Shown: positions 1 through 28,017 of the stretch, piece after piece
Numbering within the stretch: position 1 is the stretch's first letter
Layout: every line of letters begins with the position of its first letter
Assembly (NCBI GenBank): GCA_030549845.1
Contig: JAUQQN010000002.1
Coordinates: 1 to 32,000 of the forward strand
Source: Patescibacteria group bacterium
GTDB lineage: Bacteria; Patescibacteriota; Minisyncoccia; UBA6257; HR35
DNA: 32,000 nt
Reading direction: 5' to 3'
Notes under the pieces: generated by a model
Told to the model about the DNA's origin: nothing
The model's input: the letters and a program-made list of their open reading frames with translations, nothing else
Database searches by the model: none
Position numbers and translations under genes: made by a program

Positions 1-670
1 AAAGTAAAACATATATTCCATAATTTAAAAGAAAATTGCTAACTAATGCCATGTATTTTGTAAAAGTGGGCAGCTCTAAATTATTTTCTTCAAAAATTCC
101 TGCTATTTTAGGAATCACTTGGGTAAACAGAACAAACATTGTTACTAAAAAAATTAAAAGCACTAATGCTGGGTAAATCATTGCTCCTATTATTTTGTTT
201 CTTAATTTATTTTGATTTTCATAATGATTCGCTAAGTTATCTAAAATCTCTTCTAAATTACCAGATATTTCTCCTATTCTTATAAGCCTTACCATTGTTT
301 TTTCAAAGATATCTGAAAATTTTTCCAAAGCTTGAGAAAAAGGCAAGCCTGCTAAAACACTTTCGTAAATTTCTTCAATTATTCTTCTAAATTGGGGTTT
401 AGATACTTGTTGTGCTAGTGCTTTTAGTGATTCATCTAAGGAAACACCACTTTTTAAAAGAAATTTTAGTGCTCTACAAAAAAATGCTAAATCTAAATAA
501 GAAACACCTCCTAAAATAAGCAGTGGTTTTATTTCGCTAATAGGTTTTATATAAGTTACTAAAATTCCTTGATTTTGTAAAACAGATATAGCAGTATCTT
601 TATCTTTAGCACTTATGATACCAGATTTAAAATTTCCTTCTTGATCAAATCCTCTAAATTCGAATCTCAT
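1..670 (-). CDS. pilC: Type IV pilus inner-membrane platform protein PilC (GspF/T2SS-F family). The N-terminal part is present and the gene runs off the window at position 1.
   Basis: Not in the ORF track because it has no stop in the window. Reverse-complement translation from the ATG at 670..668 gives MRFEFRGFDQEGNFKSGIISAKDKDTAISVLQNQGILVTYIKP...LDLAFFCRALKFLLKSGVSLDESLKALA...IGEISGNLEEIL, which is typical of PilC/GspF. The ATG overlaps the pilT stop (ATGA at 667-670). Confidence 0.85.
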   Translation of the reverse strand, partial: MRFEFRGFDQEGNFKSGIISAKDKDTAISVLQNQGILVTYIKPISEIKPLLILGGVSYLDLAFFCRALKFLLKSGVSLDESLKALAQQVSKPQFRRIIEEIYESVLAGLPFSQALEKFSDIFEKTMVRLIRIGEISGNLEEILDNLANHYENQNKLRNKIIGAMIYPALVLLIFLVTMFVLFTQVIPKIAGIFEENNLELPTFTKYMALVSNFLLNYGIYVLL

Positions 671-11730: not shown

Positions 11731-13220
11731 TCTTCTTTAAGCTTTTTTAATAATTCCTTTAATACATCGACCTCTTCTTCTTTTTTAGGATTTTTAAAGC
11801 TTACTATAAGATTTTTTGTTTTTAATTCAGAAAGCTTTATGCCTGATTTAAATTTATCTTCACATTCATAACACACATTTCTTTCAGATTTTTTATCTTT
11901 CCAAAAATTTTCTCCACAATATTTGCATGTAGCAATTTCTTGTTCTTCTGAAACAGCTTCTCTATATTTTTTGAATATTTTTGACTCTACTATTTTTCTA
12001 TTTTTTGTATATTTTATCCTTGTAAGCTTTATTATTTCATCTACATAACTTATCTCTGGAATTTGTTTTGGAGGAAATGTTCTTGCTAAAAATGGTAAAG
12101 CAGGAGTTCCATCTATTGTTATTTTTGCATAGATGTGATATTTTGGTAAATTAATAAATTCATAAGCTTTTATTGTTACAAATTCTTTTTCTAGCCTCTC
12201 TGCATCTAAACTACCAGTTTTAAAAATCAAAAAATTCCCAACATTTCCAAAAACTGCTTTTAAAATAGATTCTGGTACTTGATCTAAATATTGATGAGAT
12301 AGAATCAAATTTAATCGATATTTCCTTGCTTCTGACAAAATATTAACAAAAGAATCTGTAGCAAAATTTTGAAACTCATCTATATAAAGATAAAAATCTT
12401 TTCTTTTTTCTTCTTCTATATCAACTCTACTCATAGCTGCGAGTTGGAATTTTGTTATTAAAAGCCCTCCTAATAAAGCTGAGTTTTCTTCACCAAGTTT
12501 TCCTTTTGATAAATTGGCTAGAAATATTTTTCCTTCATCCATCATCCTTCTTAAATCAAAAGAGCTTTTTTCTTGACCTATTATATTTCTTATAAGAGGA
12601 CTTGTTATGAATTGACCAACCTTATTTTGTATAGGAGCTATTGCTTCTGTTCTAAAAGTAGAATGGTATCTTGCAAATTCATTTTCCCAGAATGCTCTAA
12701 TTACAGGGTCTTTTAAGTTTTTAATAACCTCCTTTCTAAAATTATCATCCCCTAACATTCTATTTATATCTAATAAAGTTGAGTTTGGAAATTCAAGTAA
12801 AGCTAATAAAGTATTCATTAGGATATACTCCATCCGTGCCGACCAAGCATCTACCCATATTTTTTTCAAAACTGACAAAATACTTGATGCTACAATATGC
12901 CTAAATTCATAAGAAACATTTTCAAGGGGATTAAAGGATAAAGGATATTCTATATCTCCTGGATCAAAATAAATTACATCTTCTAATCTACTTTTAGGAA
13001 TAAATTTGAGCACCCTCAAAACACTATCACCATGAGGATCTATATAACCAATTCCTTTATTAGTCTGGATATCATAAAAAATCATATTTTCAATCAAAGT
13101 GGTTTTTCCTGAACCAGTTTTTCCTAAAATATAGACATGCCTTCTTCTATCTTCTGTTTTTATACCAAAATTGATTTCTTTATTTCTAAAAAAAGCCACT
13201 CCTATTGGTAAAATTTCCAT
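11727..13220 (-). CDS. Soluble P-loop ATPase of the VirD4/TraD/TrwB (type IV coupling protein-like) family with a C-terminal CxxC-X14-CxxC zinc ribbon
   Basis: 497 aa. Walker A ILGKTGSGKTT, GYIDPHGD, Walker B YLYIDEFQNF, and LILSHQYLDQV (a sensor-like SHQ block). No N-terminal TM helices. C-terminal CKYCGENF...CYECEDK plus a Lys/Glu tail. ATGA overlap with efp, and a 1-nt gap from the ATP-cone gene. Confidence 0.6.
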   Translation of the reverse strand: MEILPIGVAFFRNKEINFGIKTEDRRRHVYILGKTGSGKTTLIENMIFYDIQTNKGIGYIDPHGDSVLRVLKFIPKSRLEDVIYFDPGDIEYPLSFNPLENVSYEFRHIVASSILSVLKKIWVDAWSARMEYILMNTLLALLEFPNSTLLDINRMLGDDNFRKEVIKNLKDPVIRAFWENEFARYHSTFRTEAIAPIQNKVGQFITSPLIRNIIGQEKSSFDLRRMMDEGKIFLANLSKGKLGEENSALLGGLLITKFQLAAMSRVDIEEEKRKDFYLYIDEFQNFATDSFVNILSEARKYRLNLILSHQYLDQVPESILKAVFGNVGNFLIFKTGSLDAERLEKEFVTIKAYEFINLPKYHIYAKITIDGTPALPFLARTFPPKQIPEISYVDEIIKLTRIKYTKNRKIVESKIFKKYREAVSEEQEIATCKYCGENFWKDKKSERNVCYECEDKFKSGIKLSELKTKNLIVSFKNPKKEEEVDVLKELLKKLKEE

Positions 13221-23734: not shown

Positions 23735-25783
23735 TTATTTTTTCAGAATAGTATCTAAAATCTTCAAAGATTCGGAGTCATTAAATTTACTTTTATACTC
23801 ATTCAAAAATCTATAAAATTTTTCATTATCTCTATCTTTTAATATTCGAAGTACTATAAGATATTGAATTTGGTTTTCTGGATATAAACCTCTTGCTATT
23901 GTTTCTTCCATTAAGTTGAAAGCTTTTTCTTTTTCGTCAATTAAATAATATAAGTTAGCTAATAAAAATAACACTCGTGGTGATTCTCTATATTTTATTC
24001 TAATTCCTTCTAGAATTTTAATCGCTTTTTCTTTTTCTCCTAAGCCTTGTAAAAATCTAGCATAATCTAAATAAATATCTGGATAATTTGGATATAAAGT
24101 TAAATAATTTTTATATAGATTTAAACTTATATTTTTTTCAAATGTATAATCCATTTTATTGGCTTTCTTTGCATTTATTATTCTACTTAAATGAATTAAT
24201 ACAATGTTATAAAGCCTTGAATCATAAGGATCTTTTTTTAATGCTTCTAAATATATCTTTGTAAATTCATGAGCTTCTTTTATGGTAGAAATTTTACTTA
24301 TGTTTGCTTCTAAATATCTTGCTGTCATATTTGCGATTTCCGGAATAAAGTTTGAACCAATCGATATTAACCTTTGAAATTTATAAAAACCTAGGGGGTA
24401 TGGCGAGTTTAAGGCATTTATTATCTCCATAGCAATATAGAAGTGATAAAGATTTAAAAAAATACCAATTAAAGTAAGCCCCATAACTAAGATTTTTAAA
24501 CTTAATCTTTCAATTTTTACTTTTTTTTCTGATTGTATAGGAATTGACACTAAAGAAAGCCCAAAAAACAAAGGTAAGTAGCTTGCTTGAATATCAAAAA
24601 GAGTTAAATTTTGTCCTAAATAACCTAAAAATAAACCCAAAAGAGTTGATTTAAGATACCTGTCTTTTTCATCTCTAAAAATACTTATAAAAACTGATAA
24701 ATAAAATAGAAACCAAAAAATAGCCCCTATTATTCCTGTTGTTACTAAAATTTCGATATATTTATTGTGCGGTCTATCAAATATTACTTCTTCATAGTTA
24801 TATATTTCTGGATTAAAAGCCTTAAAGTAAGCTATTGGTGAATTTTCTAAACCATAGCCAATAATAGGTTCTTTTTCCCAAGCATTTATAAATATATTCC
24901 AAGCAAGCCATCGTGCCATATAAGCTTTAGGGTCATATAATGTATCATGTAATCTTCCAAAAAGTGGTAAATTTTTAGCATATGGAGATTTTATAAAAAG
25001 AAAAAGGAATATGATTAAAGAAAAAATTAAAATAGTTGAAATTATTTTTACCGACAATTTAACCCTTGAAGAAAGAAAATAATATAAGACTGAAATCGGA
25101 ATAGCTATAATTAAAGCAACAATTGAACCCCTTGTTTCACTGATAAAAATATTTAATATGGAAAATAATATACCAACAAATATTACAGATTTTTCAAAAT
25201 AATTTGAATCTTTAAGAAAATATAAGCATAAAAAGAACATCAAAACTGAAAAGAAACCAATATATGTAGGGTTTCCAAATGTAGAATCTGGTCTTATTGT
25301 CCCTTTTAATTTTTGAGATATTTCGATCAAAGAAACTATATAGAGAACAATCAAAAAGGAGTAAAAAATAGTTTTTTTATATTCTGGATCAATTTTAAAT
25401 AATATATACAAAACCCAAAACCACATTAAAAAGTGAAGTAATCCCCAAAATCCTTCCATTCTTTCAGCATTTCCCCAAAAAGAAAGATAGGGCCTATAAG
25501 AAAAAGGAATTAATAAAAGCATAACTAAAATTAGAATGATAGAACCCCAAAAAATATATTCTTTTTTCGAGGGAATTAGATTTATGTTTTTGAAAATCAA
25601 AAACAAAGTTAAAGCAAAAGATATTTCAACTAATATTCTAAAAAATATTGCTTTTCCTGTAATATAGGGGAAAAATAAATTGAATATACAAAAATAATTT
25701 GGACAAACTAAGATCAAACTAAAAGGAATCAGAAAAGTTAATATTTTCAAAATAAATAGTATATTTTTTTCTTCCTTAGACAT
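23735..25783 (-). CDS. Polytopic membrane protein of the O-antigen ligase / Wzy_C family fused to a C-terminal TPR-repeat domain (possible O-oligosaccharyltransferase or polymerase)
   Basis: 682 aa. At least 10 hydrophobic helices lie in the first ~450 aa. RPHNKYIEILVTTGIIG resembles the Wzy_C signature (HN.yLe.l.e.GiiG). The last ~230 aa have TPR-like repeats (YLEALKKDPYDSRLYN; YLDYARFLQGLGEKEKAIKILE; LLANLYYLIDEKEKAFNLMEE). Confidence 0.7.
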   Translation of the reverse strand: MSKEEKNILFILKILTFLIPFSLILVCPNYFCIFNLFFPYITGKAIFFRILVEISFALTLFLIFKNINLIPSKKEYIFWGSIILILVMLLLIPFSYRPYLSFWGNAERMEGFWGLLHFLMWFWVLYILFKIDPEYKKTIFYSFLIVLYIVSLIEISQKLKGTIRPDSTFGNPTYIGFFSVLMFFLCLYFLKDSNYFEKSVIFVGILFSILNIFISETRGSIVALIIAIPISVLYYFLSSRVKLSVKIISTILIFSLIIFLFLFIKSPYAKNLPLFGRLHDTLYDPKAYMARWLAWNIFINAWEKEPIIGYGLENSPIAYFKAFNPEIYNYEEVIFDRPHNKYIEILVTTGIIGAIFWFLFYLSVFISIFRDEKDRYLKSTLLGLFLGYLGQNLTLFDIQASYLPLFFGLSLVSIPIQSEKKVKIERLSLKILVMGLTLIGIFLNLYHFYIAMEIINALNSPYPLGFYKFQRLISIGSNFIPEIANMTARYLEANISKISTIKEAHEFTKIYLEALKKDPYDSRLYNIVLIHLSRIINAKKANKMDYTFEKNISLNLYKNYLTLYPNYPDIYLDYARFLQGLGEKEKAIKILEGIRIKYRESPRVLFLLANLYYLIDEKEKAFNLMEETIARGLYPENQIQYLIVLRILKDRDNEKFYRFLNEYKSKFNDSESLKILDTILKK

Positions 25784-25810
25784 CTTTAAATTAAATTTTA
25801 AAAAATTTAT

Positions 25811-25849
25811 TCAAAAAATGAAGAGCCCCGGCTTTTGCCGGGGCTCTTC
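25811..25849 (-). terminator. Rho-independent terminator after the 640-aa surface-protein gene
   Basis: A perfect 13-bp GC-rich stem (25820-25832 pairs with 25837-25849: gaagagccccggc / gccggggctcttc) with a tttt loop. On the minus strand it is followed by AUUUUUUGA (25819..25811). It begins 17 nt after the stop codon. Confidence 0.85.
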
Positions 25850-25865
25850 TAAGGGGGAATATTCT

Positions 25866-27788
25866 TTATCTACTTATATAAACAGCATTTGTAAGGGTAT
25901 TAGTTTCTACAGTGCCTGGGAAGTTAGTTGTGATTTCACCATTATTAGAATCGTTATCATTATCCCAGGTCATACTTACAAGTTTAACTCTATGATAACC
26001 AGCATTCCAGCTTGATGGAGTTACAGCAAATTGTACATCTAATGTCCCAGTGTTTCCATTTCTTACAATGTAGTAAGCTCCGCTAGTTTCTACCCCACTC
26101 ACAGGAGTTAAAACAGGAGTACCCATGCTGATTTGAGTTGCTCCTGTAGTAGTAGCTGCAAAGCCATCTTGTGGAATATAAACATCGCCTCTTTGAGCTG
26201 TTATTTGGATTCGGAATGTAGCAGTCAAGGTAGAAGTTCCTGTATCTGGCGTATTAACAGAAGCATTTGAGCTTACAACTTTCCAATTTGCAGCTACTAC
26301 ACGATAAATGTATTGAGTTTCACCTGCAACTGTTCCAGACCAGGTAGCGCTACCTCCATCACTTCTTTCAGCCTGAGCTCCTGTTACAGAAACTCCGACT
26401 GTAGCAGCTGATGTGGTACCTAATGAAGCATCTACTTTCAAATCTGCTAATACTTTAAGCGTAACAGTTTGATCTTTATTTACTGTAACAAGAGGAGTAT
26501 TAAAGTCTACACCTTGGAAAGTAAAGGAACTTCCTGGGTTAGCAACAGAATCTAATACATTCCCGCTCATATCTAGTAACTTAAGACCAGAAACAGTTAC
26601 GTTTGAAGAAACTGTTAGGCTTCCATTTATTGATTGAACTTTTAATGTATCATTATCTGCTCTCAATACAAATCTTAGAAGCTCAAGATCTTTTACATCT
26701 CTATTTGAATCAGCTGCGTAGTTATTTGATTGTGGTGTATTTTGATCTCTATATACTACTAATGCTACACCTGTTGGAGTTGATTTTTCAACAGTAAAGT
26801 CTCTTGCAACTGTCCCAGACACATTTGGTGTGTGCTGAACCCCAACTCCATCTACTGCTCTTACATCTCCATTTCTTACCTGAATAGAGAATGTAACATT
26901 TTGAATATCTGCAGAATCTACAGTTGGATTTACAACTGCTCTTATAGTTAATACCTTTTCGCCATTTGCAGGTACTCTTACGCTAAATCCTGTAAAGGTA
27001 TATTCGTACTGGCTTACATTGATTCTATTATAAGAACTTGCAGGAAGTGATGCTAATTTTGTTTCTCCGTCATAAAGCTCGAAAGCTTGAAATACTTTTG
27101 TTATAAGAGGAGTTGAAGTTACAACGAATCTTACTCTTTGGACATCAGAATAGGCGTTTCTGGAAATTACTCTTATTCCTAATACATCCTTTGCTTCACC
27201 TTCTTTAACTACAACTCCACTTGCTGGAGAGGCTGCTAATCTTACTTCAACTACTGCTTCGCCAGCTTGTTCTGTTGGCTGTGGTTGTGGTTGTTCAGCA
27301 GATGGTGTAGTAGGAACTTGAGCTCCTAAAGCACCAAGAAGTAGAGCTAAAGCACCTTGTAAATCACCAGCTTGAATTTTTTGAAGTACTTGTGCTAAAA
27401 CATCAGCTGAAATTCCTGATGGAACTTGAGGTGTTTGAGCTTCTTCTTCAGGTGCAGGTGCTTGAGCTAAAGCAGATTTTAATGTTTCAATTCCTTGAGG
27501 ACCAACCCAGTTTCCATGCCAAGACATATTCAAGTAATCTTTATAAAAGTTTTTAACAGCAGTTCTTGTTTGAGAACCATAATATCCTGTTGCACCTGCT
27601 GGAATGTTATATCCAAGCTCCATCAAACAAGCTTGTAAGTTTTTAACAGCAGCACTTCTTTGACCATATCTTACTTGGGTTAAAGTATCTGGGTTGCAAG
27701 TTTGTGCCTTTAATGAAGCGACTGGCACAAATAGAGAAATAAGAGTAGCTGTTATTACAAAATAGGTTAGGTATTTTTTCATCTCCAT
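25866..27788 (-). CDS. Secreted cell-surface protein: signal peptide, a PG_binding_1-like peptidoglycan-binding domain, Pro/Ala/Gln linkers, then a ~460-aa Thr/Val/Ser-rich beta-rich region. Candidate S-layer or wall-anchored surface protein.
   Basis: 640 aa. Signal peptide MEMKKYLTYFVITATLISLFVPVASLKA/Q. GQRSAAVKNLQACLMELGYNIPAGATGYYGSQTRTAVKNFYKDY fits the PG_binding_1 pattern. Linkers are AQAPAPEEEAQTPQVPSG and QVPTTPSAEQPQPQPTEQAGE. The remainder is poor in Lys/Ile/Glu, unlike every neighbouring protein. Confidence 0.7.
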   Translation of the reverse strand: MEMKKYLTYFVITATLISLFVPVASLKAQTCNPDTLTQVRYGQRSAAVKNLQACLMELGYNIPAGATGYYGSQTRTAVKNFYKDYLNMSWHGNWVGPQGIETLKSALAQAPAPEEEAQTPQVPSGISADVLAQVLQKIQAGDLQGALALLLGALGAQVPTTPSAEQPQPQPTEQAGEAVVEVRLAASPASGVVVKEGEAKDVLGIRVISRNAYSDVQRVRFVVTSTPLITKVFQAFELYDGETKLASLPASSYNRINVSQYEYTFTGFSVRVPANGEKVLTIRAVVNPTVDSADIQNVTFSIQVRNGDVRAVDGVGVQHTPNVSGTVARDFTVEKSTPTGVALVVYRDQNTPQSNNYAADSNRDVKDLELLRFVLRADNDTLKVQSINGSLTVSSNVTVSGLKLLDMSGNVLDSVANPGSSFTFQGVDFNTPLVTVNKDQTVTLKVLADLKVDASLGTTSAATVGVSVTGAQAERSDGGSATWSGTVAGETQYIYRVVAANWKVVSSNASVNTPDTGTSTLTATFRIQITAQRGDVYIPQDGFAATTTGATQISMGTPVLTPVSGVETSGAYYIVRNGNTGTLDVQFAVTPSSWNAGYHRVKLVSMTWDNDNDSNNGEITTNFPGTVETNTLTNAVYISR

Positions 27789-27810
27789 TTTATTTTTTAA
27801 TTTACCGACC

Positions 27811-27838
27811 TAGCTCTATCACATTATGGATAGAGCTA
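27811..27838 (-). promoter_or_regulatory. Perfect 10-bp stem / 8-nt loop hairpin in the 5' leader of the surface-protein gene
   Basis: tagctctatc (27811-27820) pairs with gatagagcta (27829-27838) around the loop acattatg. It lies 23-50 nt upstream of the ATG and downstream of the predicted promoter. Confidence 0.6.
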
Positions 27839-27847
27839 TTCTAATTT

Positions 27848-27874
27848 GTTAATTAATTTTGGTTAATTAATTTT
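27848..27874. repeat. Tandem direct repeat (14-nt period) containing the palindrome TTAATTAA, with a third degenerate copy at 27885-27896
   Basis: gttaattaatttt occurs at 27848-27860 and again at 27862-27874, and cttaattaattg at 27885-27896. All copies lie in the transcribed leader or at the transcription start region of the surface-protein gene. Confidence 0.5.
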
Positions 27875-27898
27875 TTAATTCGACCTTAATTAATTGTA

Positions 27899-27926
27899 AT
27901 TATAATTTACTTAAATTAAAAGTCAA
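27899..27926 (-). promoter_or_regulatory. Sigma-70-type promoter of the surface-protein gene: TTGACT-N16-TATAAT
   Basis: On the minus strand the -35 TTGACT is at 27926..27921. A 16-nt spacer follows, then the -10 TATAAT at 27904..27899. The predicted leader is about 105 nt. Confidence 0.6.
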
Positions 27927-28017
27927 GTGAAATTGTGGATAATTTGAAATTAAAAAATCCTAATAAAATTTTAATTTTTTTAATTTTTCTTGTCAAGTTT
28001 TATAATAATTTTATTCA

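Follow-up and report, generated by a model that had tools for sequence, protein, structure and literature searches.

What kind of protein is encoded by the one gene whose composition departs from that of everything around it in the window (the whole stretch of DNA analysed here, 32,000 nucleotides long), and does that gene belong to this genome? The Patescibacteria (CPR) make up a large, mostly uncultured share of bacterial diversity and live attached to other cells, and it is at their outermost layer that hosts are recognised, phages attack, and nutrients are taken up. An earlier note had read the 640-amino-acid (aa) product as a wall-anchored surface-array protein. That reading is supported here by a secretion signal, a PG_binding_1 domain, three Ig-like modules, the lack of a catalytic domain, a conserved expression cassette, and a published prediction for the same architecture, known to us in part. 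We consider it probable that the protein is the principal wall-anchored S-layer-type surface-coat protein of a Patescibacterium with low G+C from the Paceibacteria/Parcubacteria lineage. Such a gene-level handle on the coat protein, comprising anchor, modules, and expression signals (Table 1), offers a target for raising antibodies, for quantification by metaproteomics, and for interpreting cryo-ET.

Table 1. Features of the locus, with positions in the 32,000-nt window
Feature	Position	Strand	Basis or remark
Distal promoter P2, TTGACA-N17-TAAAAT	27968..27996	minus	11/12 consensus matches
Proximal promoter P1, TTGACT-N16-TATAAT	27899..27926	minus	11/12 consensus matches
5' leader, about 104-107 nt	27789..27892	minus	transcription start inferred
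AAGGTCG box 1	27881..27887	minus	12-18 nt after -10 hexamer
Leader stem-loop TAGCTCTATC-CATAATGT-GATAGAGCTA	27811..27838	minus	end 22 nt before start codon
Second GGTCG copy	27806-27810	minus	directly after leader hairpin
CDS of 640-aa surface protein	25866..27788	minus	ORF call; stop codon 25866-25868
Signal peptide, aa 1-28	27705..27788	minus	MEMKK n-region, hydrophobic core, SLKA/QTC cleavage motif; read from sequence
PG_binding_1-type peptidoglycan-binding anchor, aa ~30-110	27459..27701	minus	Pfam, AlphaFold
Conserved two-helix motif, aa ~121-157, core ISADVLAQVLQKIQAGDLQGALALLLGALGAQ	27318..27428	minus	AlphaFold, conservation
Beta-sandwich (Ig-like) module 1, aa ~177-336	26781..27260	minus	AlphaFold, pLDDT ~89-95
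Beta-sandwich (Ig-like) module 2, aa ~338-497	26298..26777	minus	AlphaFold, Foldseek, hhalign
Beta-sandwich module 3, aa ~498-640, distal	25869..26297	minus	AlphaFold, pLDDT ~80-96
Intrinsic terminator GAAGAGCCCCGGC-AAAA-GCCGGGGCTCTTC + T-run	25813..25849 (stem 25849..25820)	minus	13 pairs, 10 G-C
682-aa polytopic membrane protein, Wzy_C + C-terminal TPR	23735..25783	minus	Pfam; candidate glycan-to-protein transferase

The reading frame is real, as both the ORF call and its homologues attest. At 0.380, its G+C content exceeded the average of the other 24 ORFs (0.278, sd 0.034; z ~3), and the spot counts given earlier proved exact (26/60 at 26041-26100 and 13/60 at 25201-25260). T+V+S+A+G account for 48% of residues versus 14-35% in the neighbours, and K+I+E+L+N for 24% versus 37-60%, so that the claimed deviation in composition holds both by G+C and by residue counts. 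The G+C excess was confined to codon positions 1 and 2 (GC1 0.521, GC2 0.457), while GC3 (0.162) lay inside the range of the neighbours (0.147-0.229); the deviation thus stems from amino-acid content and not from foreign origin. Horizontal acquisition was ruled out by this neighbour-like GC3 together with conserved synteny with core genes, those around the gene in the window being FtsK, rpoB/C, and EF-Tu. The gene is native, not imported. Log-likelihoods of codon usage, with EF-Tu and ribosomal proteins as the reference, gave no expression signal in this genome, with even EF-Tu not distinct; codon usage is uninformative on expression here because the genome lacks a signal of translational selection.

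The protein is predicted to carry a Sec-type signal peptide cut after Ala28. The sole hydrophobic segment of the protein spans aa 7-25, the family hardly varies at the Ala before the cleavage site or at the Cys-x-Pro-Asp behind it, and the signal-peptide region contains no lipobox; n-region, hydrophobic segment, cleavage motif, and family conservation all bear out the signal peptide proposed earlier. The suspected peptidoglycan-binding domain was likewise recovered, as a match to Pfam PF01471 at aa 45-81 that exceeds the gathering score (E = 8.6e-8, 32.7 bits, cutoff 23). In the AlphaFold model this anchor domain forms three helices (pLDDT ~77-91); it is basic (pI 9.0) and holds both Cys residues of the protein (31 and 54). 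To judge from its domain family, it would attach without a covalent bond to the peptidoglycan of its own cell. Other secreted proteins share this N-terminal anchor (45-60% identity over aa 1-110), among them ~730-aa proteins that join PG_binding_1 to a beta-propeller (PF09826); one of these comes from a MAG that also encodes a three-module protein. These ~730-aa proteins were considered as divergent family members and rejected, being beta-propellers (hhalign probability 0.1%).

The two-helix motif, with helices modelled at residues 127-138 and 142-152 (pLDDT ~72), lies between two Pro/Gln/Glu/Thr linkers that are disordered (aa ~111-125 and ~155-176, pLDDT below 50). The Ala/Leu/Gly-rich helix that the earlier note placed between two linkers belongs to this element, its sequence being located at aa 126-157. 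The motif is also present in the long-form relatives P0051, P0064, P0225, and P0098 and is absent from distant members. The ~65 residues of flexible Pro/Gln-rich linker and the two-helix element may carry the rest of the protein through and beyond the wall.

The remaining residues were modelled as three beta modules, which match the three module starts proposed from the letters of the sequence (aa 180, 341, and 493). Modules 1 and 2 are paralogous (hhalign probability 99.2%, E = 2.2e-19), and module 3 is their distant kin (~78-82%, E ~1e-5). Averaged over the model, pLDDT was 83; it mostly exceeded 90 in the beta modules and fell to ~52 over the last ~20 residues of module 3; the pTM of 0.51 points to a flexible geometry between modules. 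Conservation, as major-residue frequency, declines from anchor to tip: 0.80 in the anchor, the most conserved part of the family, 0.76 in the two-helix motif within the near subfamily, then 0.69, 0.64, and finally 0.51 in module 3, which is also the richest in Ser/Thr (25%). A drop of this kind is what one would expect if the anchor lies close to the wall and the outer face is exposed. On the modelled fold, the three acidic Ig-like modules would be the exposed part, with the variable, Ser/Thr-rich module 3 facing outward in a lattice. S-layer proteins typically have a mass of 40-200 kDa, an acidic pI, and little or no Cys, and are rich in hydrophobic and hydroxy residues. The mature protein (65 kDa, pI 5.05, V+T+A+S = 40%, no Cys outside the two in the anchor) agrees with this chemistry on all of these counts.

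The signals around the gene point in the same direction as its product. P1 lies where the earlier note had put a promoter; P2, a second one, had been missed. Both hexamers of P1 were invariant in an alignment of the window with L001, L005, L007, L008, and L009, as was the -35 block of P2 (AAACTTGACAA). Promoters like P1 stand upstream of most family genes, and a second full TTGACA-type promoter (strict pattern) was present at 5/6 aligned loci (not L009) and at L003, L010, L013, and L063. The ~105-nt structured leader described earlier was confirmed by its fold (-23.1 kcal/mol, z = -5.3, equalled by 0/200 shuffled versions); an Rfam search of the leader found no family at the gathering threshold. 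The stem-loop is conserved, with compensatory double changes in 4/10 pairs, and other subclades have a second, unrelated stem sequence at the same place (5/16 pairs compensatory). Among 18 family loci folded, 13 had leader hairpins with z < -3 and three more had weaker stems, with no hairpin in L063 and L006. AAGGTC[G/A/T] occurs upstream of nearly all family genes, and GGTCG was invariant in the close clade (six-sequence alignment).

The terminator, too, stands out as the earlier note had claimed for the 32 kb: no other terminator-like site on the gene's strand exceeded 8 pairs or 4 G-C pairs, and a comparable GC-rich terminator was found within ~30 nt of the stop codon in 15/15 family loci with downstream sequence. 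A 10-pair plus-strand terminator call at 27811-27838 is the leader hairpin of the 640-aa gene read from the opposite strand. The next gene, a conserved partner, begins 36 nt past the terminator; the 640-aa gene is plausibly monocistronic. Judged from sequence, promoters, leader stem-loop, and terminator form a putative dedicated high-expression cassette that is conserved family-wide. Expression would proceed from two tandem near-consensus promoters to a strong terminator, the leader stem-loop probably stabilising the mRNA.

Far from an orphan insertion, the protein belongs to a large Patescibacteria family, with 52 homologues (full-length ones 589-740 aa, 32-96% identical) and 366 representative clusters at E ≤ 1e-30, mostly of 590-700 aa and with the same layout. 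Apart from one partial sequence (P0009), all full-length homologues carry PF01471. Informative source names were all from Patescibacteria lineages (Paceibacteria/Parcubacteria/Minisyncoccia), and the only UniRef-named member was A0A1G2T0H2 (Zambryskibacteria). Module profiles also detected long forms, in which 5-6 copies of the module-2 type occur in PG_binding_1 proteins of 1,046-1,272 aa.

S-layer proteins of Patescibacteria with six or three Ig-like domains were predicted in a 2024 preprint (bioRxiv 10.1101/2024.05.28.596244), the accessible part of which names three-domain examples from Yanofskybacteria (GMX57981.1, 692 aa), Vogelbacteria (A0A1G2QP48, 643 aa), and Nealsonbacteria DGGOD1a (UMX47672.1, 727 aa) and gives the three-domain form a predicted p6 lattice of 13.5 nm versus 13 nm by cryo-EM. 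The 640-aa protein resembles this class in phylum, signal peptide, three Ig-like modules, and size (640-700 aa), and was assigned to it on the strength of matching architecture, size, and taxon rather than of sequence; GMX57981.1, A0A1G2QP48, and UMX47672.1 were not among the matches of the distant-member or C-terminal-only alignment searches, and cluster look-ups did not yield them either. As far as the accessible part goes, the kind of protein was already predicted in 2024, and ours is a well-supported further member. The C-terminal region, for which the earlier note could name no family, indeed has no Pfam or NCBIfam model, but the three-Ig-like-domain class, as described there, fits it. 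In a metatranscriptome, PMX_810_sub_00350 (2079 nt, signal peptide, PG-binding domain) was among the five most expressed secreted genes (PMC10936435); we equated it with GMX57981.1 (692 aa) by length and citation, and within the accessible text it is for this protein only that the PG-binding anchor common to our protein and the preprint's class is stated. The two-helix motif between anchor and module 1 is specific to the near subfamily of our gene and is not mentioned in the accessible part of the preprint, whose six-domain class corresponds approximately to the long relatives detected by module profiles. The preprint likens its six-domain protein to the csg-type layer of Haloferax volcanii, in which a string of Ig-like domains likewise yields a hexagonal lattice; the latter differs in being archaeal, lipid-anchored via PGF-CTERM, N-glycosylated, and six-domained, without a PG-binding domain. 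By the prediction published for this architecture, the modules of the 640-aa protein may self-associate into a hexagonal lattice.

A different use of the same architecture, which we regard as possible but distinctly less probable, is that of a wall-anchored host-attachment adhesin, whose Ig-like modules would bind the host cell of an episymbiont and form no lattice coat. The 254 Foldseek matches at E ≤ 0.001 were to tandem Ig-like surface arrays only (integrin leg domains, PrgB Ig-like domains, antigen I/II C-terminal domains, and Gram-positive pilins). The best of them, PrgB 8beg, antigen I/II C123 7l0o/3opu, and EbpB 9lr7, are adhesin or pilin arrays, tandem beta-sandwiches on a monoderm surface, although identity was just 7-11% and TM-scores were 0.11-0.21. 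Tandem Ig-like modules are just as typical of non-lattice adhesins, a most variable distal module is what a ligand-binding or host-specific tip would lead one to expect, and highly expressed PG-binding-domain proteins of Paceibacteria were read by their authors as host-attachment factors (PMC10936435). Yet length and three-module layout are very uniform across hundreds of clusters, whereas adhesins usually vary in repeat number. Unlike Gram-positive adhesins and pilins, the 640-aa protein has no LPXTG motif, C-terminal hydrophobic segment, or other covalent sorting signal (its C-terminus is ...TLTNAVYISR), and its anchoring would be N-terminal and non-covalent; proteins of the same architecture, moreover, are predicted in the accessible part of the preprint to tile a p6 lattice that fits the measured lattice constant. 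The two roles are compatible, for attachment can be a function of an S-layer too. A third role, outside lattice and adhesin alike, would be structural or scaffolding at the wall, for example as a spacer in the thick wall zone or a dock for other surface proteins; this appears improbable: sharing of the N-terminal anchor with other secreted proteins means that the anchor alone does not specify an S-layer, and flexible inter-module geometry would suit such a role, but the dedicated cassette and the published expression and lattice prediction, so far as accessible, fit a bulk coat better than an accessory protein. A peptidoglycan-active enzyme or substrate-capturing protein targeted by PG_binding_1 is very improbable and largely refuted, for although many wall hydrolases contain that domain, a relative bears the label 'peptidoglycan hydrolase-like protein' in one source, and NCBIfam returned a weak SleB match (E = 0.0048, 16.8 bits versus a cutoff of 236.5) confined to the PG-binding part, Pfam and NCBIfam searches found no catalytic domain, a PDB sequence search with aa 173-640 found no relative, none of the Foldseek matches was an enzyme fold (a known enzyme family being what the earlier note had set against its own reading), and the three beta-sandwich modules account for the whole C-terminal region.

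The product of the downstream partner gene matches Wzy_C (PF04932, E = 2.6e-20) and, at aa 554-611, TPR_19 (E = 3.1e-8), TPR_17, and TPR_14; a rough estimate gives about 12-13 TM/hydrophobic segments with the TPR domain outside. NCBIfam has no family for it. It is weakly similar to WaaL 7TPG (E = 2.7e-4), and its R218, R277, R291, and H339, invariant among 10 orthologues, fall near R215, R288, and H338 of E. coli WaaL by position number, without residue-by-residue alignment. In ~11/16 lineages, and despite differing flanks, family genes have a Wzy_C + TPR gene downstream of them on their own strand; such a gene is missing at L013, L063, L064, L065, and L069, and in Ca. Yanofskyibacterium it does not adjoin the family gene. 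Wzy_C is found in WsaB and WsfB, and a C-terminal TPR in WsfB and PglL (PMC2943079); O-oligosaccharyltransferase genes lay beside target genes in 21/31 cases, and Wzy_C by itself cannot tell ligases, polymerases, and O-oligosaccharyltransferases apart (PMC3643930). A neighbour with the architecture of WsfB, an S-layer O-oligosaccharyltransferase, suggests a glycosylated S-layer, and by this analogy the 682-aa protein may be what glycosylates the S-layer of this lineage. As a secondary and less certain step, it would O-glycosylate the surface protein outside the membrane, its external TPR domain holding the substrate in the manner proposed for Paenibacillus alvei WsfB.

Paenibacillus alvei (SpaA with WsfB) and Geobacillus stearothermophilus (SgsE with WsaB/WsaA) likewise pair a non-covalently wall-anchored S-layer protein with a Wzy_C membrane enzyme, and the C-terminal TPR of WsfB has its counterpart in the 682-aa neighbour, while the separate TPR partner WsaA resembles the arrangement at L068, where a stand-alone TPR gene follows a long form. 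In contrast to our protein, SpaA and SgsE anchor by an SLH domain to a secondary cell-wall polymer, not by PG_binding_1, and their systems have full slg glycan-synthesis clusters, whereas no glycan-synthesis genes lie within the window; the S-layer proteins share no sequence similarity, and glycosylation is here inferred only. N-x-S/T sequons were not enriched in the 640-aa protein (9 observed versus 6.9 ± 2.4 expected, P = 0.24).

To the published prediction, in the part accessible, the locus adds that the gene is native and stands in a conserved high-expression cassette and, by sequence comparison, that its anchor appears common to other wall proteins and the gene itself appears genetically coupled to a WsfB-like enzyme. 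This coupling leads to the prediction that CPR S-layers are glycoproteins. A joint reading, which we offer tentatively, is that the two genes would form a pair for S-layer O-glycosylation, minimal and conserved within the candidate phyla radiation: the Ig-like coat would be made abundantly from hairpin-stabilised mRNA and the transferase at a much lower level via terminator read-through, the outer modules, rich in Ser/Thr, would be captured by the extracellular TPR so that glycan can be transferred to them, and the AAGGTC box with the leader stem-loop would provide lineage-specific post-transcriptional control for envelope genes. The accessible literature on these proteins makes no mention of the O-glycosylation pair, of read-through, or of AAGGTC/stem-loop control. 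At distant loci, a ~360-aa gene, absent from the window and rejected as a relative of the modules, to which it is unrelated, lies between the two members of the pair.

The 640-aa window protein is probably a peptidoglycan (PG)-anchored, S-layer-type coat protein from a bacterium of the Paceibacteria lineage, and both the description and the interpretation offered in the earlier note, which had flagged it from sequence alone as a candidate S-layer or major surface protein, are supported. Its signal peptide lacks a lipobox, and the PG_binding_1-like domain claimed behind it was matched in Pfam at 32.7 bits (cutoff, 23). The C-terminal region, thought to comprise roughly three beta-sandwich modules, was modeled by AlphaFold from 51 family sequences (mean pLDDT, 83; numbered one below the protein, as the reference is without the initial Met) as three beta modules with pLDDT mostly above 90. 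By hhalign, module 1 is a paralog of module 2 (99.2%, E = 2e-19), and module 3 is related to them only remotely (~80%). Foldseek matches in the PDB were tandem Ig-like surface arrays only (identity, 7 to 11%), with no enzyme fold among them, and no solved structure related by sequence was found. The mature protein is of 65 kDa with a pI of 5.05; both cysteines fall in the anchor domain, which is itself basic (pI 9.0), and the Ser+Thr content climbs from 16% (module 1) to 25% (module 3).

Coordinates of features in the window, in the window protein and at loci of relatives (L numbers) in other genomes
Feature	Position	Strand	Remarks
Surface-protein gene	25866..27788	minus	640 aa
Signal peptide	aa 1-28		cut between SLKA and QTC; sole hydrophobic segment; flanking residues near-invariant across family
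PG_binding_1 anchor	aa ~30-110		Pfam match aa 45-81
Disordered linkers	aa ~111-125 and ~155-176		pLDDT < 50
Two short helices	aa ~128-153		pLDDT ~72
Beta module 1	aa ~177-336		
Beta module 2	aa ~338-497		
Beta module 3	aa ~498-640		
Distal promoter	27968..27996	minus	
TTATCCACAATT box	27931-27942	minus	between the two promoters
Proximal promoter	27899..27926	minus	
AAGGTC(G) box	27881-27887	minus	
Leader hairpin	27811..27838	minus	
Second GGTCG copy	27806-27810	minus	directly past leader hairpin
Interval with terminator	25784-25865		
Wzy_C-TPR gene	23735..25783	minus	682 aa
Long-form genes	L017:1883-5248, L067:6001-9489, L068:6001-9495, L069:6001-9399		
Beta-propeller class genes	L018:6941-9124		also L021-L025, L027, L030, L031, L034, L035, L037
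~360-aa secreted protein genes	L002:8052-9131, L003:8470-9579, L063:5949-7028, L010:~12282-12929		
Toxin gene and 66-aa ORF	L003:8188-8469		
Ribonucleotide reductase gene	L003/L004:12032-end		

The compositional deviance previously noticed in the surface-protein gene is real: its G+C content is 38.0%, the 24 remaining ORFs of the window averaging 27.8 ± 3.4% (a recount of the original spot values gave identical figures), and T, V, S, A, and G account for 48% of the protein. The surplus G+C is restricted to codon positions 1 and 2 (GC1, 0.521; GC2, 0.457). GC3 (0.162) falls within the range of the neighbors (0.147 to 0.229), and in its synonymous codons the gene therefore follows the bias of the genome at large; the deviance stems from the amino-acid make-up of the protein, not from a foreign source. 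Around the gene lie core genes of an ordinary kind (type IV pilus ATPases, PilM, TyrRS/TrpRS-type synthetases, EF-P, ribosomal proteins, EF-Tu, RpoB/RpoC, FtsK, YchF, and two tRNAs). Codon usage proved unusable as an expression proxy in the source genome.

Homologs in relatives form a large family. A first search returned 52, nearly all of 620 to 680 aa with PF01471, and the 2,963 matches of an exhaustive profile search included 366 representative clusters at E ≤ 1e-30, mostly of 590 to 700 aa and matching the three-module region; named sources were Pacebacteria, Paceibacter, Minisyncoccia/Minisyncoccales, Parcubacteria, and Zambryskibacteria. Distant members likewise begin with a signal peptide and the PG_binding_1 motif, conservation drops from anchor to tip (0.80, 0.76, 0.69, 0.64, and 0.51), and the two-helix motif is limited to the near subfamily. 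Long forms of 1,046 to 1,272 aa (proteins P0051, P0064, P0098, and P0225) combine the same anchor with five to six modules of the module 1/2 type and sometimes the helix motif. The anchor is also common to PF09826 beta-propeller proteins of ~725 to 750 aa that have the same signal peptide and are 45 to 60% identical to aa 1-110 of the window protein; their C-terminal parts are unrelated to the modules. One MAG (Paceibacter sp. KUB_Bin06) holds both a beta-propeller gene (L018) and a three-module gene (L008). Some family or anchor-bearing sequences (P0008 and loci L019 and L022) are labeled Thermoplasmata archaeon, Thermodesulfobacteriota, or Omnitrophota, and several close relatives (binchicken MAGs) are labeled “Candidatus Saccharibacteria”; these off-lineage labels probably reflect mis-binning or loose naming of the records, not real occurrence outside Paceibacteria.

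Three Paceibacteria count PG-binding-domain proteins with a similar predicted structure among their five most highly expressed secreted genes (PMC10936435), and one such gene, PMX_810_sub_00350 (2,079 nt; signal peptide present), is expressed far above its neighbors (PMC10936435, Table S2). In bioRxiv 10.1101/2024.05.28.596244, two classes of Patescibacteria S-layer proteins are defined: one with six Ig domains (1,131 to 1,274 aa) and one with three (Yanofskybacteria, 692 aa, drawn from the PMC10936435 metatranscriptome; Nealsonbacteria, 727 aa; Vogelbacteria, 643 aa), the latter predicted to form a hexagonal-pyramid p6 lattice; its 13.5 nm is similar to the 13 nm measured for a lattice by cryo-EM on unidentified Patescibacteria. 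By phylum, length, signal peptide, anchor, and number of domains, the window protein corresponds to the three-domain class, and long forms are common to both; our long-form relatives are probably the published six-domain class. The main rival, that the window protein is a host adhesin that forms no lattice, appears unlikely beside the coat-protein reading. This kind of protein has already been predicted, and it is neither experimentally solved nor curated as a domain family. Absent from the papers cited here are the conserved expression cassette with its AAGGTC box and covarying leader hairpins, the anchor cassette shared with other proteins, and the conserved Wzy_C-TPR partner gene.

The gene has its own promoter, as the earlier note had it, and also a second, distal one. 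Across an upstream alignment of six relatives whose proteins are only 27 to 72% identical, the two hexamers of the proximal promoter, the distal -35 block, and a GGTCG motif are invariant; the distal -10 hexamer varies, and no second promoter passing the pattern was found at L009. The TTATCCACAATT box, the same in five of the six (L009 differs), could be a regulator binding site. Nearly every family gene (L001-L015 and L063-L066) has an AAGGTC(G) box 12 to 18 nt past its -10 hexamer, at a distance from the start codon too great for a Shine-Dalgarno site; the second copy of the box, GGTCG in the close clade, is an AAGGCG-AAATTAA variant in other clades. The structured leader was borne out by folding (z = -5.3); of the 10 pairs in its hairpin, 4 show double changes that compensate each other, and in other subclades an unlike hairpin stands there instead, with compensation in 5 of 16 pairs. 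Among 18 family genes compared, 13 are preceded by a hairpin with z < -3, three by weaker stems, and two (L063 and L006) by none; no Rfam family matched the leader. The terminator is indeed the sole strong one in the window, and an equivalent stands behind all 15 family genes with downstream sequence. Tandem promoters and stabilizing 5' hairpins are classic in S-layer genes of Lactobacillus and Bacillus.

The next gene encodes a polytopic membrane protein (~13 hydrophobic segments) with a Wzy_C domain and C-terminal TPRs, the latter placed outside the membrane by a rough positive-inside analysis. Its start codon lies 36 nt past the end of the surface-gene terminator with no good promoter between, and it may depend on terminator read-through, which would build in a high/low expression ratio. 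The same-strand pair recurs at L066, L001/L005, L009, L002, L003/L004, L010, L011, L012, and L015, and behind the long-form genes of L017 and L067, with flanks that vary by locus (upstream, FtsK or RecG; downstream, rpoB, ribonucleotide reductase, or HU). At the long-form locus L068 the partner is replaced by a stand-alone TPR gene, at L013, L063, L064/L065, and L069 it is absent, and in “Ca. Yanofskyibacterium” it is not adjacent. Wzy_C alone is compatible with a glycan polymerase or ligase. The domain is also carried by the S-layer O-oligosaccharyltransferases WsaB and WsfB, and WsfB, like PglL, has a C-terminal TPR, WsaB having a separate TPR partner, WsaA (PMC2943079); genes for such enzymes usually adjoin their targets (PMC3643930). 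In ten Wzy_C-TPR orthologs, invariant Arg and His residues lie near the positions of the catalytic ones in WaaL, and O-glycosylation of the coat protein by its neighbor is therefore proposed, if only tentatively.

In distant lineages, a secreted protein of ~360 aa with a Cys-rich C-terminal half is conserved directly after the surface-protein gene, and at L002, L003, and L010 its gene sits between that gene and Wzy_C; it matched no Pfam family and is unrelated to the beta modules, and the window contains no homolog of it. At L003, a ParE/HigB-like toxin gene and a 66-aa ORF separate the ~360-aa gene from the surface-protein gene, and the ribonucleotide reductase gene of L003/L004 carries two intein and LAGLIDADG insertions according to precomputed Pfam matches.
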